From NCBI GenBank assembly GCA_002633005.1, contig NMRA01000165.1, positions 439,541 through 503,540 on the forward strand: 64,000 nucleotides of DNA, in the 5' to 3' direction. A model generated the notes under the pieces. The model was not told the origin of the DNA. It did not search any database and saw only the letters and a program-made list of their open reading frames with translations. Positions 1,132-56,742 of the stretch are shown here, in pieces. A program made the translations under genes and the position numbers. This stretch comes from Phoronis australis. Lineage: Eukaryota > Animalia > Phoronida. The first letter of the stretch is position 1. Each line of letters starts with the position of its first letter.

Positions 1132-1194
1132 TTAGTCCGTAAACTGTCGGTTGATATTTTTCCCAAACAACATTTCCCGTAGAGCTGGCTGCAT
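1132..1194 (-). CDS. ATP6V1E1: V-ATPase E exon 9 ([20 protein letters not shown])
   Basis: 63 nt; cag acceptor; TAA stop at 1134-1132. Confidence 0.96.
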   Translation of the reverse strand: MQPALREMLFGKNINRQFTD

Positions 1195-4100
1195 CTGCAA
1201 TAAAACAAAACTTACTTACACAGCAATTGCAGAGTCTACAAATACAGGTGAAGACAACAGTGATATGTCAATAACAGGAGCAATTGAAATACTTTGAGTC
1301 TCCAGGCAAGGCTGATGAAGAAAATTGTGTAAAGTGTATCGGAATTCTTCACCTATTTAGCAAACCCTATGGCAGACAAAGGAAATTGTTTTTTGCCAGA
1401 TTTCTCAACAAAAATAGACATTAAGAATTTTTTCATCTATTCTTAGCTTGAAATTGATTTCTTCTATTTTTCCCAACCAGAAAAGTGTGTGTACCTTGAA
1501 ATTCTTAGCTTGATTTGTAACATATATAGATGTCATGACATAAAAACAACATTAGGAAAATTTTCATGATTTGCAATTTCTGAAAATGACTTCTTAAAAC
1601 CACTTTCAGCTGGTGATGTAACCCCACCACTAATGGTCTATTTACCCCAACCTCAAGACCGTCTGGCACAACTTTTCGATCAGTCACTTCTTTGGCAGGA
1701 ACTTCGATGCCAAATATTGGCCCATTCCGCAATGACAAATATTTAAAAACCACATAAAATTCTCCTCATTCAGTCCCAAATTCCCCTTCAGTGATTAAAA
1801 AAACCCTCAAGGTTAGAATCAGTTCTTCAAATCGTCAGTTTTGGCTACATGATGCATTGCCAATGAGGGAGAAGACATGATTATTTAAACAAGAGCAATG
1901 TGGAGTGTTGAAATGCGCTCACAAATGCATTGCAAATGGTGTGCTTTTAGGGTTACTTATTTGTATCATAAAAATGGCCACTAGATGGCGCAAAAACATA
2001 CAATCCATCCAAAAACAGGAACATGCAATAATTCATAAAAATCTGTCAAGGAACTTCCGAGAAACAAAGGAAAACAGAATAAAATGAATTGCCACTAGCG
2101 GTCACACTGTCCGTTGGATCTGCCTGAAAGTCCTCGTCGTCTGTTGTTATCTTCATATAAATACACTTACTAAATTTAGTAAAGATCCTGCAGTGGATTT
2201 AGGAGATACAACTATGGGCGCAAAACAAAACTACCACTAGGAGGCGCCACAGTAGTCAGTCACCATCATCAACGGTCATCTTCACAGTGAGAACATATAT
2301 GCCAATTTTCAAACAATTTGATTGATACAGGGGTGGACGCCAAAAACAAGATTTGAAAACAGCAAAAATGGCCACTAGGTGGTGCAAAATACCTCAAATT
2401 CCATCCAAAACAGGGAGATAGCGTCATCACACAAAAGATGCCTATATATAAAATTTTATGAAAATCTGTTGAGAACCTTTGACGATACTGAGTTAAAAAA
2501 ATAAAATTGCCACAAGGGGACACAGCAGTAGTCATATCTGTCTGAAAGTCGTCGTCATCTGTAGTCGACATCATATAAATACGCTTGCTAAATAAAATAA
2601 AGATCCTGCAAACGGTTTAGGAGATACAGCCATAGGCGCAACAAAAACAAAACTGCCACTAGGAGGCGCCACAGTAGTCAAAATCGTCGGAAAAGCATCG
2701 TCAACAGTCCCCTTCATAATAAGCACATACATGCCAATTTTCACAATCATCCTTTGAGCAGTTTGGTTGATAGAGGGGTGGACACAAAAAAACAGACTCA
2801 AAAACAGTAAAAATGGCCACTAGGTGGCGCAAACTACGTCGAATCCATCCGAAAGCTTGAGGATAGCGTCATCTCACTAATAGGTGCCTACATACCAAAT
2901 TTCATGAAAATCCATTCAGGACTTTTGAAGACACAAAGGTAAGCCTACAAAATTAAAATTGCCACTAGGGGGCACACCGGTAGTCGGATCCGTCCGAAGG
3001 TTCGCTCATGCCGTCACATTCATGAATGGAACAAATGTGCCAAATTTCATAAACGTATGTCAAAGGGTTTTGGAGATAAAGCAGCAGATGCCGGACGGAT
3101 GCCACCCGGACGGACGGAAATGACGGCATAATGCGTCCACATATAAATATGTGGGCGCATAAAAAGTAATGCATTTGATTGGCATTTAGACTTACACCTA
3201 TAACCTGAAATTGAAAAGAATTCCTTGAAAAATGTAGGAGAAATGACATTTTGAAAATAAGACGACCTGTGTACCTATTGGCCACTTCCGGTGCATTATG
3301 AGTAAAAATATAATTATATATTTTATAAAGTTTCGTGATGGCTCAAATGTACTTGAAAAGTTTCAAAGTTGAAAGTTGAGTCGATTGAGAGTTTTTAAGC
3401 TCTAGAAATGGTTGGAAAGGAAAATGAGAAGAAAAAGATCAAAACCCGAGAATAACAAGACTCTGCAGTGGTACACACAGAGTCATTATTTGTTAAAACT
3501 GTCAGTGACGTTTGAATGTTTTCACATACCAAATGGATGTAAACATGGAGCATCAAATACTTAAGACTATGATCAAAAGTTGAGTCGATCCCCCTGTCCC
3601 CCGTAGAGGTATTATTACCCAGGTGCTATCACTTACCTGCTCACTGATCAAGCCAAGTCTACTCTCTAATGTATTCTCTACTTTAATCTTCTGGTTAGGA
3701 GTGAACAGTACTACACCACCAGCTCTGTAAACAACAAACATCAAAGTAATTGGTGTGTGTGAACCAAGGGTGCAAAAGATGAATAGCCCTACCAAATATA
3801 GACAAGAGAGCTTATGCTTCAGAAGTTATATCACAGACCTTGAAACAAGAGCAATGCGGAGCACTGAAATGCGCCCACGAATGCACTCCAAACGGTGTGC
3901 TTCTAGGGTGTTTATTTTGATCATAAAATGGCCACTGGATGGTGCAAAATACTTTGAATCCACCAAAAACCAAAATAGATAAATGACACAGTTTTGTAAC
4001 AGAAAGCTATTTACCACATTGCAAGGAACTTCAGAGAAACAGAGCAAAACAGAAAAAATGAAATTGCTACTGGGGGGCAAAGAGTTTGTCGGATCCACCT

Positions 4101-7100
4101 GAAAATTGTCGTCTTCTGTTCTTAACTTCTAAATCATATGAATACACATGCTAAATTTAATGAAGATCCTACAGAGGGCTTATCAGCTACAGCTAAGGGG
4201 GCAAAAAACAAAACTGCCACTAGGAGGCGCCAAAGCAATTGAAGTCGGAAAACCATCGTCAACCGTCCTCTTCACACTAAGAACATATAAGCCAATTTTC
4301 ACAATTATCCTGGTTGACAGAGGGCGGACGTTAAAAAGAGTTAAGAAAACAGTATAAATGGCCACTAGATGGCACAAAATATGTTGACTCCATCTGAAAA
4401 CCGGAAAATGTTGCCGTTTCTCTAAAAGACAGCCATTTATCAAATTTCATGAAAATTCGTTTAAGAACTTCAGAGAAACAGAGGAAAGCAGAAAAATAAA
4501 ATTGCCATGAGGGGGCACAGTGTTCATCGGATCCGTCTGAAAGTCGTCATCTTCCGTTGTTAACTTCATATGAATACACGTACTAAACTTAATAAAGATC
4601 CTGCAGAGGCTTAGGAGATACAGGTATGGACGCAAAAAACAAAACTGCCACTAGAAGGCGCTTCAGTAGTCGAAGTCGACGGAAAATCATTGTCAATGGT
4701 CCTTTTCACAGTAAGAACATTCATGACAATTTTCACAAACATCCTTAGAGTGGCTTGAATGACAGAGATACGGATGCCAAAAAACAAATTCGAAAACAAT
4801 AAAAATGGCCAATACGTGGCGCAAAATGCCTCAAATCCATCCGAAAACGTGAGGATAGCGTCATCTCATTAACACATGCCTATGTGTCACGTTTCATGAA
4901 AATCTGTTGCGGACCCTTGAAGATACAGAAGCAAACGCCCTCTGTCGTCAACCCCATAGGAACACACCTGCCAAATTTCAATACGATCCTGTATGGGGTT
5001 TAGGAGATACAGCTACGGATGCCGGATGCCCGGACACCCAGACAGAGATGACGGCAATTATGTACCCACATATAAATAGGTGGGCGCATTAAAACAAGAG
5101 CTTTTCCATAAACACTGTTTGGAAACGGAATATACTTAAAATGTGTCTTGGATATGAATTTTGTGGGGTCTGTTCAAATAAAATCTGTGATATAGGAGGG
5201 CAATAGCACTTGAAAGCAAAAGTTTTGAGCCTTCTGTCAAAATCATAATTATCGGCGGTTGTTTTCCAGAACAAACAAGCTGAAAGTGCCTTTACCCCCA
5301 CACCTGGTGGACAATGTGAGAATTAAAAGCTTAAAAATATACAGACTGACTTGCCATTACTTGAACATTCCAAATAGCCAACAATGTGCATAGTACTCAC
5401 ATATCTGAAGGTAAAAAGTCAACCGTGTCCAATTTTATCGTGACTTCATTTCCTGTGGCTTCTTTGTACTGCTGGACAGCAGGAGTTATACATTGCTGAA
5501 GCACAATAAAATGTCCCAGCATCAACCAAATGCTTATTAAACTTATTAAGTTTCACACTTGATAATTAAGGTAACCGGCTAACCATCATTATGAAGAATC
5601 CAATCTTCTAAATACATTTACAAAACTGATTGCAGATCCATAAAACTATACATTTTAAAAATCCTTAATGATCAATTGGCAAACATGGATATGACTATGA
5701 GCCGACTTGGCAAGAACACTGCATGAAAGGAACCTTTTGTCACAGACTCTGCCCAAATGTACGGTGGTTTCACAAGGACATGAAACTGCACATCAGCAGC
5801 AACACAAATGAAAGCCACGTTGGCACAGTTTTATAATGAAGGAATCCTGTGCATCCTAGTGACATTATGCATCACATTCTAGTGACAATATGCATCACAT
5901 CCTAGTGACATTATGCATCACATTCTAGTGACATTATGCATCACATTCTAGCCACTTTCTAAAGACAAAATATTAATCTGCATTTTTGTGTTCGGAGACA
6001 GGTAAAAGAAATGTCAAAACATCAAAACAATAACTACAAAATCTGCAAGTCTAGGCACACGTAAACTTTGCACTGAGGCTATTATGTGATATCAGGGACT
6101 TTCTGTGATGTAGAAGTTAATACTTCATCAAACTTAAAGGCAAATGGATGTCCGATATTGCGTGTCATGTTAACCCTTGCACTCAAAAGGTGCACTGTTT
6201 CACCAGTTGTCAAAAGTCAGCACTTACAAATAACAGCATCAAAAAAGCCAGTGTCAATGTTGTTAGGATTGATCAAGTGCATTTTTCAAATTAAACTTCT
6301 TGGTAAATAATTTTACTTTCTAGTATGAAAACTATTTCTTACTGTTAATGAGCCAGAAAAACAAAATTCCAAAATAGGCCACTAGCTCTTAAAACATTTC
6401 CTTCCCAATACAAGACTTAAATTCATTTTCAATATGAATGGCATCAAGAGCAATTACAGTTCCAAAATTGCTCCAGACAATAATTGGGCTAGCTGCCTAC
6501 CTCTCCAAAATTTGACAAGTAACTTCATTTAATTTCAACTAGGTAAAAAACCGTAATGCTAAATATGGGAGGGAAGTTAATTATCAAGTCTTGTATTATA
6601 AGATACTTTGTATTATATGATACTTTCCCTGTATCTCTCATTTCACCACATGGATGTGACTTGAATGGTTATCAACACTTGTTGTCTATCTGTACATATC
6701 CTGATGATGTCTTGTGGAATAGACGAAACGTTGAGTTAACATGAACTTAAAACTACATAGTTCTTCATTCAAGTAGTTAAGAACGTGCAATGTCAACTGA
6801 TGTTGATGAACGTATCTTGTTACCTGTTGTGACTATCTTTCATTTTTGTTGACAAACCCCTTAATCATACTCATTAATTTTCCAAATGCATCCGAACACC
6901 CTTTACCTTAACGAGCTCCAAGTCCTGTTTCCTACACTTCAGCAACACTTCAGCTTCCAACAACTGATAGACACCCTGAAAATAAGAGCACAGTGTGATG
7001 AGTACATAACATATACCAGAGCAGAGATAACGGGTCAGGTACAACAAGGACATGATGCACACTCAATGTGAAAGGGAAGAAGGAAGTAAACGAGCAAGCT

Positions 7101-10100
7101 AAAAAGCATCAGAGTTAACAGTATTTTGTTCCACGTTTCATTCTATAACAAGGTATTGCTAAGGGATTGAAAATATCTGAGTCATGCTTGGAAATCTTGA
7201 GTCAAGCTTAAAGAGCTCCAAGTTATGCATAACATCTAGCTTTATGAGACAAATGGTTTAAATACTGTTGTATGGTACTTATGCTCTTCCTGTAAAAGGA
7301 CAGTGACATGCAAACAAAGATAGTTATTTCACTAAATTTGCGGAAAAGAAGATCATGACAAGAAAACACAATGGGCAACTTGAATCATGTTTAAATTTTT
7401 GCTCATATAGAAATGCCAAGATAAATAAAGTAATACACAGACACCCGTGTCACAGCTCAACATGGGACAGAGCAGTGATTTGGACCACAGACTCATCAAA
7501 GCTCAACATACCTGTAAGATCAGACCTTTTAACACAGTCTTGTATTTTTCTGCATCTCGTGTCACACTTCCCAGCTTTTGATGTGCCTCACTCAGTATCG
7601 TCTGAAAAAGAATTTACAAAGAGAATCCTTTGTATGGTCTTAACAAAGATTTCATCCGTTGTCCTTATTACTAAGGGACCCTAGATTGTAAACACTGTGA
7701 TGACCATATGTGACCACACGTGTGTGTGTGTGCGTGTGTGTGCGTGAGTGTGTATGCGTGTGCGTGCATAAAAATGGAATTTTATACAATTTGTGTACAT
7801 ATATCAAATTTTTTAAGAATCCACAAAGTTTACCATCATCTACCTTAACTAACATCAACAGGTAAAGAAATGACAAAGTCACAAATTACAAAATGCAATA
7901 CTTGAGCATGAAACAAACGAAACACTACTTATCGCTAATCGTGTAATTCATGCTTCAACTATCAATTATCAAAAAAACAAAGTGGTTATTTATGAAGCTA
8001 TATAAAGATCAAGAAAAAGGCTGCCGACACTTCAAGAAACTTTCCAACAGTTTCCAATTATTACCAATATTATGTGTGGATAAATATGTGAAAGGCATTT
8101 GAGTTTTAGTTAAATGTATATCTCCAGAGAGCAGCACACAAACAGGTGCAAAAGAAACCATTTGTGTTACAAGCTCTCAATTCAGCTTGAAATAAATGCC
8201 ATACCTTCATATGGTCTTCTCTACACTTCAACACTTTCAGACGGGCTTGATTTAGCAAATTTGAGTTTTGACTGTAAGAGAAAAAAGCATTAACATGAGA
8301 AACAAACCAAAACAGTTAAAACTTTGCTTTATAAAGCTAACATTGGGTTTTCCTAGCGACTGCAAATAATATGCATCAAGACAGAAGAAATAAATACTTG
8401 ATGTACTTTAGCATTCCAAGTTGTTTATATCTGTTTTTTTGAGTAACACTTTAAAGAAGTGAAATATCAGTGGTAGTAATTACAATGTCCAATTTGAAAA
8501 ACAAAATTAAGCAAACAAAGTCTTCCACAGGACCAAAAATGTGCAAACTTCAAGATAACTAAAGGCATCAGAAAGAGTTTCAACAATTTTGTGCAAGCCA
8601 TTGTCACAAAAACACTCAAGTTTGAACTCTGGACGTGTCTCTTAGATTTTACTAAGTTCCATTCATAAGGTGACAATAAGGATTTTAAAGAGAGAAGCCA
8701 GAAAAGCAAGATGCTAAAAGTGCATAAAAGATACTCATTCATAACAAATTAATGTCTCCACTAAACAGATTTTGCTGTACTTATCACTTAGCTGCATTCA
8801 ACTGTTTAAAGCTGGCTAAAACACAAAAATCAAATTTGGTCTTTTCCACCCATAAAAATCATCATTTCAATATTCCTTGCCATGACAGGATTCCATTTCA
8901 AAGTCACAGACAATGAGTACATGTGGGATGTGCCAACTTCGAATTCGCCATTTTAAAGTTGCACAAACCCATTAAACGTTTCCTTGAGTCACTGATGGTT
9001 TCAATGATCTTGTTGATTAGATTCTACTATGATAAGGAGCACCATGAGTCTGAGTTCATGAGATTTGCTTTTTAGTCACTGGGTAAAATGCATCTTTAAC
9101 CATATTAATCAATACGCAGAACAAAAATATTCAAGACAGTCTGAGGCAGTTCAGTGTTAGGATGACTCTTCGTGTTTTTTGTTTCCTAAAACAATGAGTA
9201 GGACATACATCTTCTTCTGCAGCTCAACCTGTTTTTCCTTCCGCTCATAATACTCCATGATCTTCACACGCTGCTGCTGCACCAGACGACCTTTCTGAAT
9301 GTTGAACTCCTCTTCTGCCTGGAATCAACATTCAATGCATCACAGAGTATGACAATGAAGATGGTGATAATGGTGACGGTAGTGGCAGCAATAGGCAGTT
9401 ATTAGGAATTTCTGATACACACCATAAAAACAAACACAAAATACTTTTTCTGGAATGTCCTTTTATGACTCGTAGCTAGCCGCATGGTGAATTCCTCTTG
9501 CATACAGCTGTCATGACAGATGATTCTGCCCGCATTCAGACAACATGACAGGAAAAAAGGGTCATTTCGACTGAATGCTCTTTGGTATGAGCTATATCTT
9601 CAGAAACCAGCACAGTTTTGGGAAATCCAACAAACTCTGAGAAACCATAGTAGAGGCTATAAAAGTAAGCCTGTGGGTCAATATTTGGAAAATTTATGAA
9701 TATAGGCTCATTGGTATACATTTAGAGAAGCCTGCTTTCAGAAATTGCATATAGTAATAATTAAGTCTGCCTCAGCAACCTTTTTAAAAAGAATTTTAAT
9801 TATTTGCCTCACTGAGTATGAGTGATCAGTGAAGCAGAATACATACGCATACACTTAGAGTGGTGCTTAGCCACGTAATATTAGAACAACATCCAAGACA
9901 AATGCAACATTAACGCTTCATGAGATATCTTGGAACAAATTACTAAAGAGCAGGGAGCATGACCAGAATCTGGCTTCGAATAGTTAATTACTATAGAATT
10001 GATAGCGAAGTCATCCAGTCCATCGAAACTTAGAAAAGATCAAACACTCCACTGTCCACAAAAAGGGCTTATGTCAGCATATTTGGAAGTTTTCTATCTG

Positions 10101-14673: not shown

Positions 14674-15000
14674 CCTGACTGTTCACAGAGAAACAAGAAA
14701 ATCGCGAAAATTAACAAACCGACTTCAGCCTCTATCGATCATGTGACTTCTTGACAAAAGAGGTCACTGTAAATCATATAAAATGTATCATTCGAATCAA
14801 CTTGGCATAAAGATTTGAGTTTTGGCAACAAAGAGAGAGGTATCATTTAACTGACTCTTTAAATTTTGATTTTTTTTATTATTTTTTATGTTATTTTCTT
14901 GGTTCTTGCGTCAACTGCATATAATCGATTGTTGCTTTACTTTTCACTTCCGGACCGGCATTTTTGATTTTTGGAAGTCGCGAAACGTTACCAATCAGGT
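14674..15000. promoter_or_regulatory. Putative bidirectional promoter between ATP6V1E and the BCL2L13-like gene, with a candidate non-coding first exon of the latter ending at 14998
   Basis: M-box/CLEAR-like TCATGTGAC at 14739-14747, DRE-like TATCGAT near 14733, TCGCGA near 14702 and 14978, ETS motif ACTTCCGG at 14946-14953, donor-like CAG|GTATTT at 14998/14999. The BCL2L13-like ATG exon starts at an acceptor (21530/21531), so an upstream UTR exon is required. Confidence 0.6.
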
Positions 15001-15306
15001 ATTTCCACTATTGTCTCTATTTATTAAATTTTTGGCTATTTTCTCTGTCCTGATTCGTCATTAGTGATATTAGCAGTTGTACCTAGGTTTTATAATAAGC
15101 CACAGGCACACGAATCTTGTGCAGTTTAAACTTCTCTTCACAGCATTCTGAGACTGAGACATCCATGATCCAGTTGAGTTGAGTAGCCTACTATAGGAAA
15201 AAAACTTAAAGTCGTAATTAGTACGTAGAATACTAGAATTTTCTTACTTGAGCTGGCATTGTTGTGTCTGTCTGTCATGGTGTTACCATCGTTCTGTCCT
15301 GAACTG

Positions 15307-45600: not shown

Positions 45601-48600
45601 ATGATCTCCATGCTCACCTAACTTCTCCTTCGCTATCTCAAAGAGCGTCAATAAAAACCGCAGTAGAGAAGATCTTGTCTACTGGATTTCACCCTGCACT
45701 TAGCACAGCCGTAGAAGATGCCACCCTGCGTGTAATTGCTGAAAGGGTTTTATCTTGTGATCAGCGCCAGCCGCTCTCAGAGTTCATAACTATTTCCAAT
45801 ACCAATGAAGTTATTGCGGAAGTGTTAAAACGACCCAACATTCAGAACATCGTCTTAGCGTCATTCGGTTGTTCTCCAGTCGACCTGGAAGGGAATTCTT
45901 GGGGTGTGACAAAAGACAATTGTCTTGATTTTTTCGGCGGACTCTTACACGACTGCCTGCGTGCTGCTGTTCTTTCTACGACAGTATATGATGATGTTCT
46001 GAATTGTCTTCCTTACTTCGACGGGCGAACGAGTATCCATCAATTCATGAAGGAGTTACTGTCCCAGGCTGTTGCAAAGGAAACACTAAAGAAGTTGCAC
46101 GAGTATGTCCTAACATCTTCTAATCAGAAATTTGATTTCTTGTATCCAGTCTCTCCAGATGAGCGACAACATCCCGCTTACGAAGACGCATTCATTCGTG
46201 TCCTTGGTCTGCCGCACAACAGAACCGTTCTTTATCATCTTCTCATGTCTGTTATTCACGAAAAAGTAGTCAAGCCAGTCTTCTCAAAAAAGGTCTCCAC
46301 GAAGGTTCTTGATGTAGGCGGTGATGCTGTAGCCAGCGTCATAGTAGAGGGTTACCAGGCTGGCGCGAATGTAGACTTGTTTGTTCTCCCAGGGACTCAC
46401 TGTTTGGATGCTATCACTGAAGAAGTCGTTGTGGCCGCTTACTCGTGTGGGCTGTTGTCTGATGTCGTGACTGCTATGGAAGCCAAGGAACATACTCCGA
46501 TACCCGAGGTAAGCTTTTAATGAGCAGCTCATGTCTCAAAGTGATAATTAAAGTGACATTATTGACGAGATGAGTCTTTTTTGTGATCAACCTCAGCGCA
46601 TGAATTCTTTGCTGGTTGAGCTTAATTCATCTCAATATTTTAAACTAATTAAACTGGTTGAGACATTGGCCTAGATTTTAGCGAATATCTGGCAAACAAT
46701 GGTGAGACTGGCGCTTCGAAATAAAACCAACGGATTTTTTAGCTCTGGTCAAAGCTTAGAATCACTTCAAAAAGTCTATCACATTGAACAATACATGTAG
46801 TACCAAAAATGACCTTAAAACGATAAAATGTCATGATTTATCTTATAAACAGATATCAACTACCGCAGCTTTCTGCAGACAATGCCGCCTGCTCTGAAAT
46901 AACCCTTTAGGGCGTATACAAGGAAATTCTCCCAAAACTCCCAGGGCTTGTATTTGCATAGAAACTACATTTTCGATCTTTTTAATAAAAACTTTTACCG
47001 ATTTCATGGAAGTGGACTCTTTAGGACCTTGCATTTGCCGTCTCGTACACTCTGCTGTGAAGATTATCTAGGACCGTAGAAAAACGTTCAAATTTGGCTA
47101 ACTTTGGTCCATCATGTTTTAGAAACATTAAAATGTAGTTCTTGGGTCATCCGTGAAATGCATGCTATTGTCTCTCATTCACCGCACGAATCCTTCAGTA
47201 AATAACCTTTCTGAATTATTGAGCCTGTGCAAATTTTGTGTAACATTGGAAAAGGATTGAGTGTCATTTTCAATTATCAGCTCTTCATTATTCTTCAATA
47301 ACTTTGTTACTTTGGTATTTCAATGGATTATAGTTCTAGTACCTCATTGTGTTTTCATGCACGTTGTAATTAGACGATTGCCGTACCTTGTGTTCTATTA
47401 TTACATATTCCAGCGCTAGATGGGGAAAGTCGTTTTTAAAGCTGCATTACCCCTTGTTTAGCCAAAAAAACGAAAGTCGAATTTTGCATTTTTCTCATAA
47501 AGTCGATCTCGTAACATTCCTGTCATCGAAAACGAGGGTTAGCCGACTCTAAAATCGTGCCTTAGCTGTGACTTGAATTACTGACTAATTCGACAATAAT
47601 TGTTCAGTAGATCGGGTGACCGTGGTTATGTTTGAAACCCCTAAACGCATGGGAATTCAACATTAACAAAAACGTCCCTTTAATATCTGTTGATTGGCCA
47701 AAACCCGATTTGGTATCCGTTTAAGTTTCTCATTTTAATTTTGTGCCTAGTAATAAAATAACGGCTATAGTATTGCTAGCGAAGGATGAAAATCTTCTGA
47801 CTTCAATTTGGTGGTGGAAAACTAGATTTCAATGTGTTTTATTGCCACTGAACATTCTGGATTATCTTCTTTATTCAAATGGCATGTGTTCGTGCATTGC
47901 GTCACCGATTGGCGACGTCATTCTGGTGTCCCTGCTGAGCTCATGTAAAACATTATGACGTCACGGGTGTCGACCTGCGCTATGTGATCCAATAAACAGT
48001 CAGTGCTCTTGCTACTGCCCAGGGGCTGCACGTGAACATCTATGAAATGGCCGCAGCTCCTGAGGACGCTAAAGTGACTGAGGTTTGGGGTCCTTCCTAC
48101 AAATACCTTGTGGGCGACGACGAATACGTTATTCAGTCCAGACGTACCCAGGCAACTAGCGACGGGCACGTGCCTGAGATGGTAATCCCCGGGTGTGCCA
48201 CGTCTGCAAGAACGATTGAAATGAGCATCAACAACAATCGTTTATCTGGCTCTACGTCGATTTCGTCGGACGTTGCACATTTGTGCCTCAGTGATGATGT
48301 CCGATATTGCAATATGATTACCGATAGCAAAGATTTTGCACAACAAAAAGGTGGACATGGCGATCCCCCCTCTCAGATGTTGGCTACTGCTGACCTGCAG
48401 TACATAAAAGAAGCTTGCTTACGAGATACGAGAGAATTCTTGCTTCGCTCGCAGAGGAAGAGGTATTATCTCGACAAAACTACGCGTGCCATTGACAGGT
48501 CTATAAGGAAAGCTTTTCGGAGGGAAGAACCATTTGTTAAGAGACCTCAGAAGCATTATCGTAAAAAGCATCAGGTAGAATAGGGCGAGTGCTCAATTTA

Positions 48601-49961
48601 AGAAGAAAGTTCCTTTAAGTATTCGTCTCGATGGTTATTTCGGGTAATATCTTGCAGTTTCATTTTATTTATTTCCTTCCTCCCCGGGTAAATTTTCTCA
48701 AAATGAATTATATTTTTTCTTTTAGGCGCAGTCGAAACCTGGGCCTGTCGAATCCAAACCCAAAACACCAACACGCAAGCCTCATCAAATCTCAGTCGGC
48801 CTTAAGGAGTGGGTTCGCCTGTACGTGGATCATGTACTCTTTAGAACGACACAACAAACAGACACGAAGGCTTTTACCACTAGGACGCCCATTCCTGTCT
48901 TCTCGTCTACTTCGTCAATACCATTTCCCGATAGTCGTTACGGGTCTAGTGTGTCTTCCGTGACAACAGAACATTCCACCATCAGCGTCATCCATGTTGA
49001 AACTCAGACGTCACGTGCTCAGGTTGTGGAGCACTTACCTGCAAGACTCCCGAAAGTCGATAGCAAGTGCGTTGGAGTGACGCCAGACTGTCTAGATGAG
49101 CAACGGTCGGCGGAAACAGGAGAAAACGATAAAGACATTGAGGTTGTCAAGCAATGGCTTGACAATACGGGTGGAGCTTATAAGGAAGTGAAGTCTGGCA
49201 GTAGCCAGAGCAGTGCCACCTCACGAGTTTACGAGGGGGACGATGGGCATCTGATAGTGCCACAGGACAGACGATCTAGTGTTGATACAGGCACTAAAAA
49301 CTTGCATGTCAGTGAACCTTCTAACGATCAATCGGAAGAAACTATTCAGGTACCCAGCAGGCCTCATAGTAAGTCTGTACGTGCCAGTCCGACGTATCCC
49401 GAAGACCAAGCATGGAAGCTCGTGCATAGGGCGTCTGCGCCTCCTTTAAGTAAAGAGCAAACTGTCGCTCTCAGCGCCCTGACTGTCACGCCATCGGACG
49501 AACCCGACGTCTGCACATTATCTCCGCTCTCTTATCAGCCACAGACCACATCCCGTTCGTCATCAACACGCATCAGAAACCCACCTCGAGCTCTGACCCT
49601 ACCTTTCGCAACGGACTGTGTCTCTCATGTTCCAGGCGTCGGTCTTAGCGATCAAGATGCTCTTCTGTTGCGTACCACCGATGCCGCCAGTAGACAGTCG
49701 AGAAGCAGGACGCATATGCATCAGATGGTGATAAACCTTGGACACCGTATCTGTGACATGTTGTCGTCCACGACTGCTGACGACAGCACGGGCGGCATTT
49801 GGCCGTGGTGTGCGGTAGGTGTCGCTGTAGGGCTTGTGGGCGTTTACTGTCTAACGAGGAACAGTTCTTACCCGCGTCTCTTATCTGTAGACAACAATAA
49901 TGTAAGAAGCGTTGTCTGGATACCGTCAGTGAGGCTAGAGAACTTTGTGTCACCTGATTAA
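21533..49961 (+). CDS. BCL2L13: Bcl-2-like protein 13 (Bcl-rambo) orthologue; giant predicted isoform of about 4,203 aa (4,359 aa as assembled)
   Basis: Phase-compatible exons 21533-21662, 22714-22794, 26456-26647, 26993-27072, 27671-27799, 28360-28503, 34436-34522, 35082-40752, 41731-46508, 48023-48574, 48726-49961. Motifs YETKYLVLKFL, TYEQF...NASGWHQ, KRGQKFLS, ADFIIRQGGW and PPESP match recalled human BCL2L13 (YETKYVVLSYL, TYQAF...HASGWNK, RRGQEPLS, AEYIIQQGGW, PPESP). A hydrophobic anchor lies near the C-terminus, and the gene is head-to-head with ATP6V1E. Joining of the giant exons is inferred from splice signals only. Confidence 0.8.
22714..22794 (+). CDS. BCL2L13: BCL2L13-like exon 2 (VDSGQERSFVGQDDLQVDGGGPDYDET)
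   Basis: ttttacag acceptor, GTAAGA donor, 81 nt, phase 1-1, open frame. Confidence 0.8.
23252..23411. repeat. Minisatellite of about 43-46 bp, about 4 copies (CACTAAGATGGACCTACTTCCTGTTATGAGAAACAGGCT...)
   Basis: Read directly from the sequence; imperfect copies. Confidence 0.85.
24405..26022 (+). mobile_element. HINE-like element, copy 3 (opposite orientation)
   Basis: TTTTTTATGCGCCCACATAT start, (GTCC)-like microsatellite, tandem subunits, end GTGGGCGCATTTCAACGCTCCGTGTTGCTCTT. Confidence 0.75.
26456..26647 (+). CDS. BCL2L13: BCL2L13-like exon 3 (DNSLSSVTARS...EIEKGVSPEIDRLRQ)
   Basis: tttccag acceptor, GTTAGT donor, 192 nt, phase 1-1. Confidence 0.8.
26993..27072 (+). CDS. BCL2L13: BCL2L13-like exon 4 with BH3 (ENEVVHQIRTIGDE)
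   Basis: ttctag acceptor, GTTTGT donor, phase 1-0; BH3 core IxxIGDE. Confidence 0.88.
27671..27799 (+). CDS. BCL2L13: BCL2L13-like exon 5 (VNVRFANE...TYEQFKNVMRTLTQDINASGWHQ)
   Basis: ggcag acceptor; non-canonical GC donor (CAG|GCAAGC); 129 nt. Confidence 0.88.
27819..27949. repeat. Tandem duplication of about 63 bp just downstream of the GC donor
   Basis: TGTC[G/A]GTGTACACCAAA..TGAAACATC..CTCATTTGAACA..AGTTTCATTTTGAAATCATGTCAG occurs twice. Confidence 0.85.
28360..28503 (+). CDS. BCL2L13: BCL2L13-like exon 6 with BH2 (VALVMSF...KSADFIIRQGGW)
   Basis: ttgtag acceptor; GTGAGG donor right after GGW (typical Bcl-2 family intron position); 144 nt. Confidence 0.93.
28547..28920 (+). mobile_element. 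Degenerate partial HINE-like copy
   Basis: TTTTATGTGCCCACAT start, TATCTCCAAAAC and AGTGGCAATTTTAGTTTTTACATTT shared with copy 3. Confidence 0.55.
28986..29866 (-). mobile_element. Kolobok-like non-autonomous transposon A with THAP and transposase remnants
   Basis: TTAA|AGGCGAAGGCAACC ... TTTCCTTCGCCT|TTAG; minus strand encodes KQRLKKGTIPSLL..RSAFLKRE (THAP C-terminal AVPT-like box) and [33 protein letters not shown]. Confidence 0.75.
29871..30757 (+). mobile_element. Kolobok-like non-autonomous transposon B with long inverted arms (about 280 bp)
   Basis: TTAG|AAGCGAAGGCAACC ... GGTTGCCTTCACCT|TTAA; arms are reverse complements of each other; interior [24 protein letters not shown]. Confidence 0.78.
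31846..33264. mobile_element. Non-autonomous DNA transposon with CAC..GTG ends and a 5-bp target-site duplication (Transib-like)
   Basis: ACCTG|CACGGGTGAGAAACAACGTGACCGCCGGTCCTC ... GAGGACCGGCGGTCATGTTGTTTCTCACCTGTG|ACCTG; inverted arms of about 150-175 bp built of subrepeats. Confidence 0.8.
34436..34522 (+). CDS. BCL2L13: BCL2L13-like exon 7 (GSIQKTPPESPVFDGSSPPSANVLPSGGP)
   Basis: tttcag acceptor, GTAAGT donor, 87 nt, phase 0-0; PPESP motif. Confidence 0.75.
35082..40752 (+). CDS. Giant coding exon (5,671 nt), Ser/Thr/Glu-rich and probably disordered; inferred exon 8 of the BCL2L13-like gene
   Basis: Lies within the 1951-aa ORF; branch point TACTAAT near 35054, pyrimidine tract and CAG at 35079-35081 (phase 0); donor G|GTGAGT at 40752/40753 (phase 1). 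Confidence 0.85.
37495..37755 (+). repeat. Coding 24-bp minisatellite (TEGDTSQ[R/S]), about 11 copies, with more degenerate units upstream
   Basis: GAAGGTGACACTTCTCAGAGAACA units in frame inside the giant exon. Confidence 0.93.
41731..46508 (+). CDS. Giant coding exon (4,778 nt as assembled); disordered N-half, hydrophobic helical C-half; inferred exon 9
   Basis: ttactttcag acceptor, phase 1, in frame with the 1587-aa ORF; donor GAG|GTAAGC, phase 0. Confidence 0.85.
44212..45146 (+). other. 467-bp tandem duplication separated by a single N; probable haplotype-overlap assembly artefact
   Basis: 44212-44678 matches 44680-45146 apart from five substitutions (four synonymous, one V/A); N at 44679. 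Confidence 0.85.
48023..48574 (+). CDS. Inferred exon 10 (GLHVNIYEMAAAPED...KHYRKKHQ)
   Basis: ctgcccag acceptor phase 0; CAG|GTAGAA donor phase 0; covers the 183-aa ORF. Confidence 0.7.
48726..49961 (+). CDS. Inferred terminal exon with C-terminal transmembrane segment (IWPWCAVGVAVGLVGVYCLTR)
   Basis: ttttctttag acceptor phase 0, in frame with the 378-aa ORF; TAA stop; hydrophobic segment resembles a Bcl-2 family tail anchor. Confidence 0.8.
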   Translation, partial: AQSKPGPVESKPKTPTRKPHQISVGLKEWVRLYVDHVLFRTTQQTDTKAFTTRTPIPVFSSTSSIPFPDSRYGSSVSSVTTEHSTISVIHVETQTSRAQVVEHLPARLPKVDSKCVGVTPDCLDEQRSAETGENDKDIEVVKQWLDNTGGAYKEVKSGSSQSSATSRVYEGDDGHLIVPQDRRSSVDTGTKNLHVSEPSNDQSEETIQVPSRPHSKSVRASPTYPEDQAWKLVHRASAPPLSKEQTVALSALTVTPSDEPDVCTLSPLSYQPQTTSRSSSTRIRNPPRALTLPFATDCVSHVPGVGLSDQDALLLRTTDAASRQSRSRTHMHQMVINLGHRICDMLSSTTADDSTGGIWPWCAVGVAVGLVGVYCLTRNSSYPRLLSVDNNNVRSVVWIPSVRLENFVSPD

Positions 49962-50719
49962 AAACGTCTTCACGACTTCTACGTTTTCTTAATTTATGTA
50001 TATTTTTATTGTGTTAATAGCAGCGCTGCTTCCTTTTCTGTACACCACCTTTAGTTAATTACAGTACTTACGATAGCGTTATTTTAGATAAAAGCCAGGC
50101 CTTTTTCTACTGCAGTTGAATTTTCCCTTGTGGATGACTGATATAACCTCTGACCAACACCTCGGCATATTTGTGTTACCAAGGAATCTTGTTTTAGTGC
50201 AATTGTTACTTATGGTGTGTTTTGTTTACACCCAGGCGCGTTACTCCACATAAGTTCTGTGGAAATTTATTTATATTTTATTTAAATTAAGTATGTTATC
50301 TGCTGTTAATTTAGAGCTCTGCGAGTTTTTGTACCATATTTTTGTCTTTCAATGCTAAAACGGGTATGTTGTGTGCCAACAATTCGTAACCTTCATGTTC
50401 CTGTTTTGAATTGTTAGCCAACGCTATTCAATTATTCTTTCAGGTAGCTTGATAATACAGACAAACTGGTTATTTAATTTATATTTGTGATATTGAATGT
50501 GTGGTGAGAAATTCTGTGTGGCAATAATCTCTGTGAACGAGACAGGCTGAGTCAAAGACTTACTGAAGGTACAAATTTCATGACTTTTTTACCAAATAGG
50601 CCTACCACGTTACTATTCTTAAAATATTTTTATAGATAATTTCTTATCGGGAGGAATTAAAATGTCATATCTTCAATGATTGGGGAGTATCAACTGTTTT
50701 GAAATCTTCGTCAATAGAC

Positions 50720-51544: not shown

Positions 51545-52170
51545 AATTTCGTGAAATTCCAGCCAGGAACTCCGAAGATACAGAGGCAAACGCATAAAAC
51601 TGCCATTGAGGCACAACGGAAGTTGGATAATCCTTAACGAACGCTTCACCTGTTGTCTCTTTCATAGGAGTACACAAAAACCCTACGAAAGGTTAAGGAG
51701 AAGCAGTGGGAGATGCAAAAATTAAAGCAGATTCCATCGAATCTGGATATGTCGTTGTCGGCATGTCAATGCAAACATGAAAATCCGTGACGGGTTTGGG
51801 CAGATACGGAGACGAAAAGTAAAAAATAAAATTGACAATAGGGAGCACATCAATTCTTGGATATTACCAGAAAATACATCGTATGTCACCTGAATCATAA
51901 GAACACATTACAAAATTCTATGAAGAAACTGCAAGCAGTTTAGAAGGTACAGCATCGGACGCAGGGCGCTGGCAGCGTATCCAGGATTTTGAGTTGGCGG
52001 GGGGCCGGGCAGGGCAGAGTATTGGTTAGGATTTTGCCCTGTCAGACATTCGCACTCCCGAACTGCCAAATGGAAATTGGGACAATTTTAGGGGGGGCAT
52101 GGCCCCCCTCTAAATCCGCCACTGAAGATGACGGCATGATTCACCCACATGTTTACGTGGGCGTCTAACA
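51545..52170 (-). mobile_element. Degenerate HINE-like copy interrupted by a small MITE (about 51973-52124)
   Basis: End GATGACGGCATGATTCACCCACATGTTTACGTGGGCG matches the family terminus; the insert ends AAATCCGCCACTG and shares GTCAGACATTCGCA..AACTGCCAAATG with 14155-14255. Confidence 0.5.
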
Positions 52171-53588
52171 ACTGGAGGTTTCACGAAACTGCATATTTGC
52201 TGGTTCATATTTGTCTGACCTCAAAAGAACTTTAACATCGAGTAACGAATCCTCTGTGAGGACTTCTATAGTTTTTTGAAGGCCTAACGCTGTCTCGCGA
52301 TTTTAATTCGACTAAACCATTGATACCGTGGTTCTTTATTGACTAAAAGGATTTGGATAAAACGCCAACATGTTTACAAACAAAAATTTTCAATGGATGT
52401 CTTCGGTTGAGCATCAGTTGAGCAATATAAGGAAGAGCTGCAGGGATTTTCATCTTGGTAAAATGAACTGGTGTTACAAGAAAGACATCTTATGACAAAA
52501 GTCATTTCCACTTTATTCTTTATAAATATATTTACATTAACAGCTGCCATGTTGGCAGTCATCAAGTACTTGGCACTTGTTAAAAACCTGTAATATTTAC
52601 AACCTCTAAAACAACACTGACAATTCAAGATAGCACTGAGCAAGTAAAACAAACATACGCTATGGGACACTGTACTTCATAACAAGGGCATTCTTCACTC
52701 ATTTTCCCCAATTAAAAATAATAGCCAAATTTGGTAATTTTTCAAATATTCAATTACATCCTGAAAATAATGAAAATTCTCAAACATTGTTTGACAGCCA
52801 AGAGAATTATATACTACAACTTTCTTAGTCTTTATGACATCTAAACAGTTCAAGCCAAGAGAATTATAGACTACAACTTTCTTAGTCTTTATTTTTGTTA
52901 AGAAATTTGACAAAACAAAATTTCACATGTCCGCCACGTCAAGAACTAAATAGGTGAAAAACTACCTTGTACACTGGGCATTAGAGCAAACTATTACAAT
53001 TACAATTACAAATATTTTCCAAACAAGCCTTGTGTCAACATATTACAGTGACAGAATTTGTACAAAAGTTATTAAACTCTTGGAACATAAAATCATAATT
53101 CTATAATTACACCTTTGAAAATTAAACAGAAAGCCCTGAAAAATTGACCGGAATGTTCCGGAACTATATTAGATTTTACTTCCAGCAACACCACAGAATA
53201 TTTAGAAAGACTTCAACATGGGACACTGAGGAGAAAAATATGTACAAAGTAGAGATATTAAAATGAATCTACAATAAAATGCTTTCACAAGGAAATCAAC
53301 AAGAACACCTGAACTTAAAAACGTAAGCCCAGCAGTACGGAATGAATGAAATTATCACAACACTGGGTTACAAATGATAGCACACAGAAACGCGAGTATA
53401 GTATATTGCACCAAAGGCTTGGGTAGAACATTGAGATTGCTAGGATGGGTCAGTAAAACATGGGAAATTCTACCACAGACAAGGGGGGCAACAGAATAAC
53501 TGTTGTTTGAAGACAACACACAGCAGTATCAGAGTTCTTCAGTGGATGTCTTGGATGATGCTCTAAGCTCAGTCAAGTCTGATGTCAT

Positions 53589-53630
53589 TCAGTCCAACTC
53601 GAAATCACTGCTATCCTCTACCATGGAGTC
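53589..53630 (-). CDS. BID-like gene, terminal coding exon (DSMVEDSSDFELD*)
   Basis: tcttatag acceptor phase 0; TGA stop; AT-rich UTR follows, with minus-strand AATAAA near 52512 and 52335. Confidence 0.7.
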   Translation of the reverse strand, partial: DSMVEDSSDFELD

Positions 53631-56600
53631 CTATAAGACAGTGTATTCATGTGGATGAACATTCTTAGGATACACCATTCTACCATGTTATAACTACAAA
53701 CACATTTCTATCAACAGTTACTTTACTTACAGAATAACAAGACAATATTTTGTAATACTTCCAGATCAAGGGATGCAAGTACAAATCTAGTAATTGCAGG
53801 CCTTGGAATGACCCATGACAAAAAAGCGGAAATTTTTACGGCCCCAAACATGCGCGCACCCATCCTTTTGCCGACAAAATTTGGGAGGACTAAAAAAAGG
53901 TAACACCTCCAGAAGCGTGCGCCTCTTTTTAGCTCGTCCGTCCACACCCAACTCCACACATTTTTGGCTGCAGAGTCGTAGTATTTGTCACCGCGATTTA
54001 CAATCTCACGAGATGCCATTGAAGAAGTCCACCACGCTTTTTCCAGGTGCCCTGGCAATGTTGACAATTTACGTTCCTCCGAAACACAAAGAGCAACTTC
54101 CGCTTTTCGTGGTGAAATTCGTCGGCAACGCCGCGGTAAGAAAGAAATTTGCCGCGGAAATTTTATATCAAATCCGATTTTTTTTACGCGGAAATATAAT
54201 AAAATGCGCAGACAGAACATTTGAAAAAAGCGGAAATCCGCGTTTCCGCAGAAAATTCCAAGCCCTGTAATTGGTAGATTTTGAAGGATAATTTTCTAAT
54301 ACAGGACTGACTTCAACTCTGGCAATTGAAACTGAAGTAAAAGCTTAGTTTTACCCTTATCTAACTGCACTGTCCCGCATAAAGTGCACACAAATGTCTT
54401 TTACAGTGTGATACACAAAATGGCATCTACACAACAAGTAATCTCCCAAATTAAGGCAGTCTCCTTCCATGTCAAGAGCAACCTTGAGCATTGATAGGCA
54501 CTCACCAGATACCTGTAGAGAAATGAGAGCACACACGTATACATATATGAGGGGTGTCTTTCAACTCACCCATCCGCCTTGGTCAGACAGCCACTCCGCA
54601 AACTTGTCCTCAAAGTACTGCAGACTCATCTCCTTGATCCTACTGGCCTGCTGGGCACCCACACCTACCCACTGTACTGCCGCCTTGGTCAGTTGAAACA
54701 GCACTGCTATCTGCTGGAAACCTTCGGACTTGGGAAGGATGTTATTTACATGCGTTTTAAACTGGTTGTACGTTGCGTCAGTAACAATCTTCTTTAAAGC
54801 TTCAGCGGGGAACTCGCCCTGTATGAAAAAAACAGTTTCTTTCAGAGAGAAGCTACGGATGAAATAAATGTCACACACTAATAAATCTTGAACATTGATC
54901 AAAGCTCAAACGCAATAGTGCATGTAACTAAAAGTAACTAAAAGGTCTCTTACGTTTGCAAATTCATCACCACGGTGACGAAGCAGAGAGGCCAACTTCA
55001 TCTCCAGGGGGTTGTGCAATTCAGAACCAGTGGCTCCACCTGTTGCTGTAAGAACTATAGGACTAGTAGGCTCATAGTCGGAGCTACTTTCCTGGCCAGA
55101 CTCAACCTGCACAATAAACAATAGTATATTTCATTTTCAAAACTAACACATTCTGTATTTCAGTTTGTACACAATTAATTCCAATTAACTAGCTGTTTCT
55201 CTGAAATACAATCATTGTATTAATGGATTACAAATATTGAACTAATTCTTAAAGAAACATGAAAAACATCAGAAAGGTCACATCAGGTGACATTTCACTG
55301 TGGTATGCAAAACATTGCTAATGAAACAAATATGGCATTTATGAATCGAATATTCCTCTATCAGCCAAGTGCATGTGACTATCATCAGACTTTACCTGCT
55401 GAACATAGCTGTCAGCTATCTCTGCCAGTTTCTTGGCCACTTTGTCATATATTACATCCTTCTCTTCTTCTGTTCTGTCCGCCATTGGTTTCTGGGCTAT
55501 CGCACTGGGTGAAAGGGGAGTACCAGCTGTAACAACCAATGTTGATTACGTAATAGCAACAGCGGCACACTAATTACTAAGGGTTGATGAACAATGGCTA
55601 GCACTACTCTATTACTGGTGTTGGATTTGCAATACAGGTGTAGTTAATACCAGATGTGTAGTAGCTACACCTGTAATTAAGTACACAAACTTCTATCAAA
55701 TCTGTTCTATGTGATGCTACTCTCGTTGTTTAAAAATTGTGTACACATTCATGATCTCGGTTTCATGCAGTGCCATCAAGCACAACATGTTTTCTAAATG
55801 TGAAGAAATGAACATTACACAAAGAAGCTGATCGGGAATGTACAGAAAACTCGCGTAAGTAGTATCCAACCAGACCGAGTAAAATCCGACTTGTCTGAAG
55901 GACAAAAGTACCACGGAACTTCTTTTACGAAACAGCAAACCAAGTTAGCTAAGAAGTAATTTGCTCACGGCAACAGGTTCACCTCAAACTATTTTTAAAG
56001 ATGATGCTAAAATAGTCACCTTGTCCACTATCTCCTCCACCATCAATCTGCAGATCATGTTTTTGCGGAGACACTAGCCCGTCCAACTTTAGCCGCCGTC
56101 TCATTTCCTTGCTCTTCACTTTTTCCCCCATTAGCTGTGCATAGCCTGTCAGCTCGTGTTCATCATTTCTTTGATTGTCAACAAGTGAAGTCACAGGCTT
56201 ACTAGACCCACGTGGTGGAAGAGGAGGGGACTCGTCAGATGTCGTTGGATGAGGCTCAGACTGACGTGAGACAAGTGGGGGACCAGGTGGGGCTTTGGCA
56301 GACGTACGGGAAGCATGAACTTTAGATTTACTAGGAACATGAGGTGGCGGAGAGGGCAGACCTCCTTTAAGTTGACGGGGGACATGTGGTGGGGGAGGAG
56401 GTGCACCACCAGCTGGGGAAGGGGCCCGTGGTGGTGGTAGTGGTGGGGGTTGGTCCTCAGACAGTCTGTGTCCATTTGTCTGCCTGTGCACACTTGTGTC
56501 AATGATATTGGAGAATTCTTCAGTAAGCTTTTTGGGAGAAGACCTAGTGAGGCTGGAGGATTTACGATGGCTGCCGCTGTGCTTTGAGTCAACTTGTAGG

Positions 56601-56712
56601 TACTTTTTCTCTGGAAGTGAGGTAGTTGTATGGCCCAAATCGATGCTTGAGCCGGGACTTTCATCGAGGACATCTAGTGATTTAGATTTGTGACCAGGGC
56701 TGCGTAGGCTCT
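53589..56712 (-). CDS. BID-clade Bcl-2 family protein at the syntenic position of BID (5' exon(s) not found); at least 422 aa, no transmembrane anchor
   Basis: Phase-compatible GT-AG exons 56020-56712, 55396-55526, 54954-55106, 54570-54818, 53589-53630. Pro-rich region, DLQID|GGGDS, BH3 VAKKLAEIADSY, second BH3 LASLLRHRGDEF, core TYNQFK...EGFQQIAVLFQL...QYFEDKFAEWLSDQGGW, ending DSMVEDSSDFELD*. Confidence 0.88.
53797..54267. mobile_element. hAT-like MITE in the last intron of the BID-like gene
   Basis: CAGGCCTTGGAAT / ATTCCAAGCCCTG inverted ends; TAATTG duplicated on both sides; repeated GCGGAAA subterminal motifs. Confidence 0.7.
54570..54818 (-). CDS. BID-like gene, Bcl-2 core exon ending in BH2 (EWLSDQGGW)
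   Basis: atacag acceptor, GTGAGT donor after GGW, 249 nt. Confidence 0.92.
54954..55106 (-). CDS. BID-like gene, second BH3 exon (EMKLASLLRHRGDEFAN)
   Basis: tgcag acceptor, GTAAGA donor, 153 nt. Confidence 0.88.
55396..55526 (-). CDS. BID-like gene, first BH3 exon (EEEKDVIYDKVAKKLAEIADSYVQQ)
   Basis: ttacag acceptor, GTAAAG donor, phase 1-0. Confidence 0.88.
56020..56712 (-). CDS. BID-like gene, Pro/Ser-rich exon ending in a caspase-type site
   Basis: tgtttcag acceptor, G|GTGACT donor, 693 nt, phase 1-1, within the 257-aa ORF. Confidence 0.85.
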
Positions 56713-56742
56713 CTGAAACAACCAAAAACAGCACTTGGTATG

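Follow-up and report, generated by a model that had tools for sequence, protein, structure and literature searches.

Does the chromosomal neighbourhood of human BID exist outside the vertebrates, and, if it does, what kind of gene stands there in the place of BID? The question is raised by a 64,000-nucleotide (nt) stretch of animal DNA (contig NMRA01000165.1; this whole stretch will be called the window), which has a G+C content of 36-44% and two assembly gaps of a single N each, at 14256 and 44679. Along it lie, in this order, a gene for V-ATPase subunit E (reverse strand, 1132-14673), a gene resembling BCL2L13 (forward strand, 21533-49961) and a second gene of the Bcl-2 family (reverse strand, 53589 upward), which I will refer to as the third gene. 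The first two stand head-to-head, and the last two are convergent. A preliminary description of the window, made from its letters alone, had proposed three genes with these strands in this order, and gene models, RNA sequencing (RNA-seq) and tblastn searches all find them so. The same description had pointed to human 22q11.21 as having ATP6V1E1, BCL2L13 and BID in this order, and the human order ATP6V1E1, then BCL2L13, BID and MICAL3 is indeed given in an excerpt of PMC7862319. The cat-eye region at 22q11.21 (CECR2, SLC25A18, ATP6V1E1, BCL2L13, BID, MICAL3) and the window share the succession of V-ATPase E, a BCL2L13-like gene and a gene with the Bcl-2 fold, but they differ in the third place, which is held by BID in human and in the window by a gene that is BCL-G-like in sequence. 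The orientations of the three human genes match those in the window. The answer argued here is that the third gene belongs to an old, unnamed family of long proteins that have a Bcl-2 domain with BH3 and BH2 at their C-terminus, and I hold, with somewhat more confidence than doubt, that it is an invertebrate counterpart, still undivided, of both BCL-G/BFK and BID of vertebrates (their pro-orthologue), and not BID itself.

In vertebrates, death receptors are connected with the mitochondria through BID, which is regarded as an invention of the jawed vertebrates. In one survey (PMC8998228), Bid was detected only from cartilaginous fishes upward, and neither Bcl-G nor Bfk is mentioned there. A survey of lophotrochozoans (PMC11463336) mentions neither BCL2L13/rambo nor Bcl-G/Bfk, and the evolutionary conservation of BCL-G is called an open question in an extract of a 2023 review (PMC10244440). 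Full-text literature searches turned up neither an account of this gene order in non-vertebrates nor one of a BCL-G in an invertebrate. The window offers a positional anchor outside vertebrates, with a BCL-G-like gene in the BID position beside a BCL2L13-like gene.

The transcript evidence used throughout comes from three runs of raw RNA reads (X6, X7 and X8) and one set of contigs (X5). X6 and X7 carry the same species code, and paired or triple counts, such as 14+13 or 30+27+5, are the numbers of reads per run at one joint. Every intron of both Bcl-2 genes is backed by RNA-seq joints, and the strands of the reads are opposite between the two genes. For the third gene, the joints are 55526>56020 (30+27+5 reads and an X5 contig), 55104>55394 (13+13+7), 54817>54953 (17+23+6) and 53629>54569 (18+12+4, and one X5 contig). 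From 56714 the reading frame runs uninterrupted across a proline-rich exon and on into the Bcl-2 domain, which consists of a first helix (EEKDVIYDKVAKKLAEIADSYVQQ), a 40-residue loop, the BH3 (LASLLRHRGDEFAN, with the core LLRHRGDEF) and an exon of 83 amino acids (aa) that ends in WLSDQGGW. The position of BH1 is occupied by EGFQQIAVL, without NWGR. The protein ends with BH2 (QGGW), 13 acidic residues and the stop, its C-terminus reading QGGWDSMVEDSSDFELD.

The preliminary description began the third gene at 56712, but this point lies at about the acceptor (56714) of an internal proline-rich exon. An X5 contig of 3050 nt extends 1930 nt upstream of 56714, and a 30-letter sequence from the upstream part, found in the contig and in 15 and 21 reads, has 0 matches in the window even when up to 3 mismatches are allowed. 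The third gene thus has its 5' exons beyond the window, and whatever follows the gene, MICAL or another, is outside it too. When 10 full-length relatives were compared with the window by tblastn, only the C-terminal exons were matched, the exon at 55396-55526 by 6 of the 10, and no N-terminal motif of the family appeared in 56715-64000.

What kind of protein is this? The 83-aa exon was searched against 1.84 billion representatives. At E<=1e-3 there were 103 matches; 31 of these reached E<=1e-10, but none E<=1e-30. In the long matches (450-930 aa), the Bcl-2 domain always lies at the extreme C-terminus and ends in ...QGGW(D/E)S..DSE(L/V)D. Many short matches read GGWVS instead, which is what reading through a GT donor would produce, so that the intron after GGW is evidently conserved in the family. 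The long relatives also share two N-terminal motifs, (E/D)A..ILE.FLK and RKKKSFFKRAKERL. Two metagenome contigs from an animal host carry near-complete, compact genes of the family (L032, 2024-6155, and L008, 2786-6899), each with an N-terminal exon of 373-375 aa that contains both motifs.

Thirty of the matches were looked up and 19 could be named; with three more from an alignment search, all 22 named relatives are invertebrate (13 molluscs, the annelids Helobdella and Dimorphilus, the brachiopod Lingula, the nemertean Tubulanus, four echinoderms and the hemichordate Glandiceps). The family is thus present in at least six invertebrate phyla and is annotated almost everywhere as "uncharacterized": the labels are uncharacterized, hypothetical or unnamed, except for Haliotis entries with unrelated automatic names. 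A word-index search with the 83-aa exon against longer proteins found no match, and one with the family alignment found seven, all of them members of the family. A tree of the domain, which holds 14 named relatives and no vertebrate rows, places the window protein on the lophotrochozoan side of a split from Ambulacraria that has support of 98/94; its nearest relative is Lingula, at 40% identity. The source animal is likely a lophotrochozoan.

These results bear on two ways in which, according to the preliminary description, its own proposal might fail. One was that the DNA might come from a vertebrate, which would make the synteny unremarkable; the 22 named relatives, the placement in the tree and the named matches of the V-ATPase E gene are all on the invertebrate side. 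The other was that the third gene might be a recent, lineage-specific duplicate, and this does not agree with a family spread over molluscs, annelids, a brachiopod, a nemertean, echinoderms and a hemichordate.

A profile built from 17 members of the family, without the window sequence, gives the third gene's domain 180.7 bits. Run against 177,635 sequences of the PDB, the same profile finds Bcl-xL, Bax and Bcl-2 in the lead, at best with 44.2 bits (E=1.8e-10). The Pfam Bcl-2 model matches 62 of 72 family members at E<=0.01, and it matches the 83-aa exon of the window at E=1.3e-3 with 19.7 bits, below its cut-off of 31.4. A phmmer search of the PDB with the same exon returned only Bcl-xL and Bcl-w (56 rows, best E=0.34), and WLSDQGGW aligns with the BH2 of Bcl-xL. 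One member of the family was modelled by AlphaFold 2 (AF2) from a 72-row alignment (predicted local distance difference test, pLDDT, of 82). The top rows returned for this model by VIA-align are all of the Bcl-2 family, with Z from 7.6 to 5.7. In the model, one helix of 48 residues replaces helices 2-5, so that only the C-terminal half aligns; the best Foldseek E is 0.09, and BFK is absent from the 50 fold matches listed.

Within the Bcl-2 family, the architecture points to BCL-G and BFK. According to an extract of the review already cited (PMC10244440), the long form of BCL-G has BH2 and BH3 without BH1, and BFK is structurally similar; according to part of the paper on the structure of BFK (PMC8814693), Bid has no BH2. 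The third gene has BH3 and BH2, no canonical BH1 and no membrane anchor, and, since it keeps BH2 (QGGW), it is not BH3-only in the manner of BID. It resembles BCL2L14 (the long form of BCL-G) and BCL2L15 (BFK) also in having a long region ahead of BH3. It differs in that the invertebrate proteins are two to three times longer and carry the two N-terminal motifs. When the domain of the Lingula homologue was used, an embedding search, in which all scores stay below the 0.9 bar and give a lead, not a test, found BCL2L14 and BCL2L15 as the nearest named clusters: "Bcl-2-like protein 14" clusters from chordates in ranks 1 (0.88, 195 shared features) and 4 (0.87), and "Bcl-2-like protein 15" in rank 9 (0.85, 184 shared features; 19% of the members of this cluster carry Pfam BID). 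The C-terminus of human BCL-G presumably reads ...GGWE....EEVD, and its N-terminus may have stretches like the two family motifs. Human BCL2L14 lies on 12p13 and not beside BCL2L13.

The name "BID-like", which the preliminary description had given to the third gene, thus survives in part. The gene does lie in the position of BID, but the exons in the window do not match Pfam BID, BH2 is kept, the architecture is that of BCL-G and the embedding search leads to BCL-G/BFK. A better label would be "BCL-G-like, at the BID position".

If the third gene is a relative of BID in position and of BCL-G in form, what is its relationship to the BCL2L13-like gene next to it? The preliminary description held that the two arose by an inverted local duplication, and it named features that they share: TYEQFK and TYNQFK, SGWHQVALV and EGFQQIAVL, and QGGW followed by a phase-0 intron (in the third gene at 54570|54569). 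All of these are present. A local alignment of the two Bcl-2 domains scores 92 (z=11), which was reached by 0 of 1000 shuffles, a level of similarity that is usual within the Bcl-2 family. More telling is the profile of the third gene's family, which gives residues 103-220 of the BCL2L13-like protein 63.5 bits (E=2.5e-16, Z=177,635). None of the 177,635 PDB sequences scores as high, 44.2 being their best, and the result fits an old local duplication within the BID-like clade. Such a clade is present in BCL2DB (excerpt of PMC3945527), and published trees, as far as the consulted extracts go, cluster BID and Bcl-rambo together with Bcl-G and Bfk. The intron after GGW (QGGW, phase 0) appears to be general to the Bcl-2 family, and it therefore provides no specific argument for the pair in the window. 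The proposed duplication, judged from the sequences, is plausible as an old event; the shared intron has to be dropped from the case for it.

[quoted passage not shown] In the vertebrate stem, the copy convergent with BCL2L13 would have been duplicated again; one of the resulting copies would have been shortened to BID, losing BH2, the long N-terminal arm and the acidic tail, while the other would have retained the form of BCL-G. By analogy with BFK and BID, the product of the third gene may be a soluble, latent donor of BH3. The helical bundle at its C-terminus would hold BH3 hidden, and BH3 would be set free once the loop, or else the long disordered arm, was cleaved or modified. The product of the BCL2L13-like gene would sit in the mitochondrial outer membrane by means of its tail anchor. 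The full form of the proposal is tentative, and I doubt it rather more than I believe it: that the last common ancestor of bilaterians had ATP6V1E, BCL2L13 and a proto-BID-BCL-G, that BID is the truncated, in-place descendant of a long BCL-G-like gene, and that invertebrates keep the full-length form, a latent BH3 domain on a signalling arm of 300-700 residues, which would be the missing BH3 "activator", as yet unannotated, of apoptosis in lophotrochozoans and ambulacrarians.

If the reading of the third gene as an undivided counterpart of BCL-G/BFK and BID is true, the clade that joins BID and Bcl-rambo with Bcl-G and Bfk started as a local pair of genes in early bilaterians, and a cluster of cell-death genes dates back to those animals. 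The origin of BID would become testable by ordinary synteny and phylogeny, and invertebrate apoptosis would have an unstudied candidate for a BH3 donor.

A number of results weigh against this reading, and I bring them together here. The alignments and trees lack vertebrate BCL2L13, BCL2L14, BCL2L15 and BID sequences, and the link to BCL-G rests on architecture, on an embedding score below 0.9 and on the human BCL-G sequence as given above. BID and BFK (PDB 7CCL/7CCM) are not among the best 60 PDB rows of the family profiles, and Bcl-xL ranks above them; it ranks first even for a profile built around P0071, a member of the family whose own PDB matches are discussed below with BID. Pfam BID finds 3 of the 72 members (7e-4 to 7.5e-3, all below its 25-bit cut-off). 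In the comparison of the two neighbours, the introns after BH3 lie 2-5 residues apart, the GGW intron is the only one exactly shared, and the BCL2L13-like gene has an extra intron in BH1. Conservation of the cluster across phyla rests on a single window. In the Lingula assembly, V-ATPase E and the relative of the third gene are not together: the scaffold of the former has 497,177 bases, that of the latter 188,750. At 41 metagenome loci with family members, tblastn found no BCL2L13-like or V-ATPase E neighbour in flanks of up to 10 kb. The functional model, finally, is analogy only.

One alternative is that the family of the third gene forms a Bcl-2 subfamily of its own, not specially tied to BCL-G, BFK or BID, which vertebrates have lost; an old tandem pair may even so account for its position next to the BCL2L13-like gene. 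This would agree with the prominence of Bcl-xL, Bax and Bcl-2 among the profile matches, with the absence of chordates from the 22 named relatives (0/22) and with embedding scores that stay below the bar. Against it, low profile scores are to be expected because BID and BFK evolve fast, and the nearest named embedding clusters are those of BCL2L14 and BCL2L15. The combination of BH3 and BH2, the lack of a transmembrane segment, the near-terminal BH2 with a short acidic tail and the long arm all fit BCL-G as it is presented in the extract of PMC10244440. I consider a separate subfamily rather improbable.

Might the third gene be simply a one-to-one orthologue of BID, with BCL-G and BFK having a separate origin? 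BID (PF06393; PDB 2BID, 1DDB) is like the third gene in being convergent with BCL2L13 (the order according to the excerpt of PMC7862319) and in having BH3 ahead of a helical bundle. There are also weak echoes in sequence: the three Pfam BID matches among the relatives, and P0071, whose only PDB matches are three entries for BID, at E 0.09-0.23. On the other side, Pfam BID (PF06393) matched none of the stop-to-stop open reading frames (ORFs) around the in-window exons of the third gene at E<=0.1, and the gene retains both BH2, which BID lacks, and the intron that splits it. The third gene has an acidic tail, and its relatives have a long arm with two motifs; BID has about 195 aa and is not known to have a long arm or an acidic tail. 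The Lingula embedding search ranks clusters of BCL2L14 and BCL2L15, with no BID cluster listed, and the lower limit for Bid at the cartilaginous fishes in the excerpted survey (PMC8998228) points the same way. A direct orthologue of BID is quite unlikely.

The remaining explanations concern the neighbourhood rather than the gene. The preliminary description held that the triplet is ancient and conserved outside vertebrates, and of this the existence of the cluster in one invertebrate stands, whereas the indirect check in Lingula goes against its conservation. One might suppose, then, that the adjacency is a rearrangement of this lineage and that its likeness to 22q11.21 is a coincidence, an arrangement seen in one window with the Lingula genes on separate scaffolds and with no such neighbour at the metagenome loci. 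The metagenome result says little, since the exons of the neighbours may be evolving fast or may lie farther away than the short flanks extend. The tblastn searches there with the BCL2L13-like protein and V-ATPase E gave only cross-matches to the family member's own exon, and no long ORF on the opposite strand was seen downstream of the family gene in L032 and L008. The same order of three genes, with the orientations of the human genes, is very unlikely to arise twice, in my judgement and not by a computed probability. The two Bcl-2 genes are, moreover, each other's nearest relatives among the sequences compared, as would be expected of a tandem pair. I give the rearrangement little credence. 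That the junctions are errors of assembly is hardly credible, despite the two single-N gaps and a 468-nt duplicate that abuts the second of them, since the gap at 14256 lies inside intron 1 of V-ATPase E with exons properly placed on both sides, the gap at 44679 lies within one exon whose reading frame holds, the sequence from the 3' end of one Bcl-2 gene to that of the other is free of gaps, and four DNA runs, which may be from the source sample and so not independent, contain 0.72-0.94 of sampled words of 47000-56999.

Table 1. Features of the window, in order of position. Features of the BCL2L13-like gene are marked B, those of the third gene T and those of the V-ATPase subunit E gene V.
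Feature	Position	Strand	Description	Evidence
V: gene, complete	1132..14673	-	nine coding exons; 681-nt coding sequence; 226 aa
V: exons	14673-14641, 10192-10127, 9318-9209, 8271-8205, 7601-7512, 6975-6907, 5495-5401, 3724-3637, 1194-1132	-
Single N (assembly gap)	14256		within V intron 1
Divergent intergenic region	14674..21532		6.9 kb, start codon to start codon; tandem repeats 15931-16139, 16592-16689
B: exons 1-6, N-terminal Bcl-2 domain	21533..28503	+	aa 1-217	RNA-seq joints X6/X7
B: exons 1-6 singly	21533-21662, 22714-22794, 26561-26647, 26993-27072, 27671-27799, 28360-28503	+	fourth with BH3 IRTIGDE; fifth with GC donor; sixth with QGGW, phase 0
B: spacer exons	34436-34522, 35082-40752, 41731-46508	+	second a cassette (5,671 nt, 1890 codons); third a giant exon (4,778 nt)	RNA-seq joints
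B: 468-nt unit, two copies	44212..45146	+	98.9% alike, meeting exactly at single N 44679
B: alternative internal first exon	47964..48574	+	ATG 48047; molecule ends at 47964	joint 48572>48724 (114+89 reads)
B: last exon	48726..50685	+	stop 49959-49961; hydrophobic C-terminal segment IWPWCAVGVAVGLVGVYCL; 3' untranslated region to ~50685
T: last exon	52100..53630	-	coding 53630-53589, DSMVEDSSDFELD and stop; 3' untranslated region to ~52100-52500	read depth profile
T: 83-aa exon	54570..54818	-	helices after BH3 to BH2 (GEFPAEALKK...SDQGGW); phase 0 after W codon
T: loop and BH3 exon	54954..55106	-	LASLLRHRGDEFAN	RNA-seq joints
T: first domain helix exon	55396..55526	-	RTEEEKDVIYDKVAKKLAEIADSYVQQ; internal ATG 55485	joint and open frame
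T: proline-rich internal exon	56020..56714	-	231 codons; 5' end open	RNA joint, continuous ORF
T: intron	56715..64000	-	5' exons beyond window

The features are collected in Table 1. According to RNA-seq, the 3' ends of the two Bcl-2 genes, at ~50685 and ~52100-52500, are separated by ~1.5-2 kb. Within the last intron listed, X8 reads cover a piece of 40 nt at 59829-59869, and the letters that flank it in these reads (27 on one side, 22 on the other) are unmatched; the piece may be a repeat or else a small exon that belongs to a different transcript.

The BCL2L13-like gene deserves a description of its own. Its start codon is at 21533. The passage from exon 1 to exon 2 is represented in X6/X7 by a 39-read loose end, and the other joints in these runs are 22791>26558 (14+13), 26646>26992 (41+26), 27070>27669 (27+27), 27797>28358 (51+32; a GC-AG intron), 28502>34435 (15+14), 34522>35082 (14+9), 40751>41730 (13+13) and 46506>48724 (67+43). 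Exon boundaries were refined after the joints were mapped, and the joins that the preliminary description had made by inspection are matched by the reads. The joined exons form one continuous ORF of 4,140 codons, so that the gene is a single giant ORF comprising a Bcl-2 domain, a spacer of ~3,800 residues and a tail anchor. The Bcl-2 domain (residues 1-217) contains TYEQFK, the BH3 IRTIGDE, SGWHQ/VALV, which is split by an intron, and IIRQGGW, and it ends at the phase-0 intron 28503|28504. The spacer begins with ~2,400 polar residues, which include the product of a 24-nt repeat in 11.5 tandem copies (37482-37757, inside a giant exon), encoding repeats of TEGDTSQx. There follow ~1,000 hydrophobic, helix-rich residues (~aa 2700-3750) with no match in Pfam or the PDB. 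A model by AF2, without alignment, of 454 residues from the hydrophobic part of the giant exon is unusable (pLDDT 35.6). The hydrophobic segment of the anchor lies 38 residues before the C-terminus.

The length given includes 156 in-frame codons contributed by the 468-nt duplicate at 44679. In the reads, identical variants appear again at a distance of 468 nt, and the duplicate is probably an artefact of assembly (gap closing); without it the ORF has 3,984 codons. The transcripts vary in two further respects. The cassette exon is kept in 14+9 reads and skipped in 20+12 (34522>41731). Skipping shifts the frame and leads to a stop at codon 251, which would give a predicted 250-aa soluble product consisting of the Bcl-2 domain without the anchor. 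Conversely, the internal start at ~47964 would give a predicted product of 587 aa that has the transmembrane segment without the Bcl-2 domain.

The assignment of this gene as BCL2L13-like is made by its predicted architecture, in which a long spacer of unrelated sequence separates an N-terminal Bcl-2 domain from a tail anchor. Vertebrate BCL2L13 (Bcl-rambo) likewise has an N-terminal Bcl-2 domain (BH3, BH1-like and BH2), a long non-homologous spacer and a C-terminal anchor, and in the human gene order it, too, is head-to-head with V-ATPase E. The spacer is where they differ: that of the window gene is largely derived from two giant exons, one of them the cassette, whereas the human spacer has roughly 250 residues. 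The window protein may also resemble the human protein in sequence. An embedding search with exon 6 led to nothing more specific than a generic Bcl-2 cluster (0.79). For a coral, an orthologue of BCL2L13 is reported in an excerpt of PMC4715348. A protein of ~4,000 residues would be a striking variant of a protein of the mitochondrial outer membrane.

The V-ATPase E gene was modelled by tblastn with the proteins of Lingula and Liolophura and by splice sites read from the sequence. Its reading frame is unbroken over nine exons, from the ATG at 14673 to 1132, where the preliminary description had ended the coding region and where the stop codon does end. One exon matches Pfam PF01991 at E=2.6e-7, above the cut-off of the family, and the spliced product is 69% identical over all 226 residues to that of the chiton Liolophura and 67.7% to that of Lingula (the best among the proteins compared). 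All seven proteins that carry names among the best 120 matches are from invertebrates (three insects, a chiton, a bryozoan, Lingula and an oyster). On the two sides of the N at 14256, exon 1 and exons 2-9 stand in the right order and on the right strand, which speaks against a false join at that point.

The tandem repeats of the divergent intergenic region consist of seven copies of 30 nt (15931-16139) and four of 24 nt (16592-16689). In RNA run X8, the BCL2L13-like gene is nearly silent (depth 0-0.9 over 44001-50670, as against 23-222 in X6/X7), but the third gene (52005-56714) is seen, so that the two neighbours are not co-expressed in all samples. Lastly, introns of the V-ATPase E and BCL2L13-like genes contain copies of one repeated element (2269-4650 and 24337-26020), which has ORFs and is very abundant among the RNA contigs.

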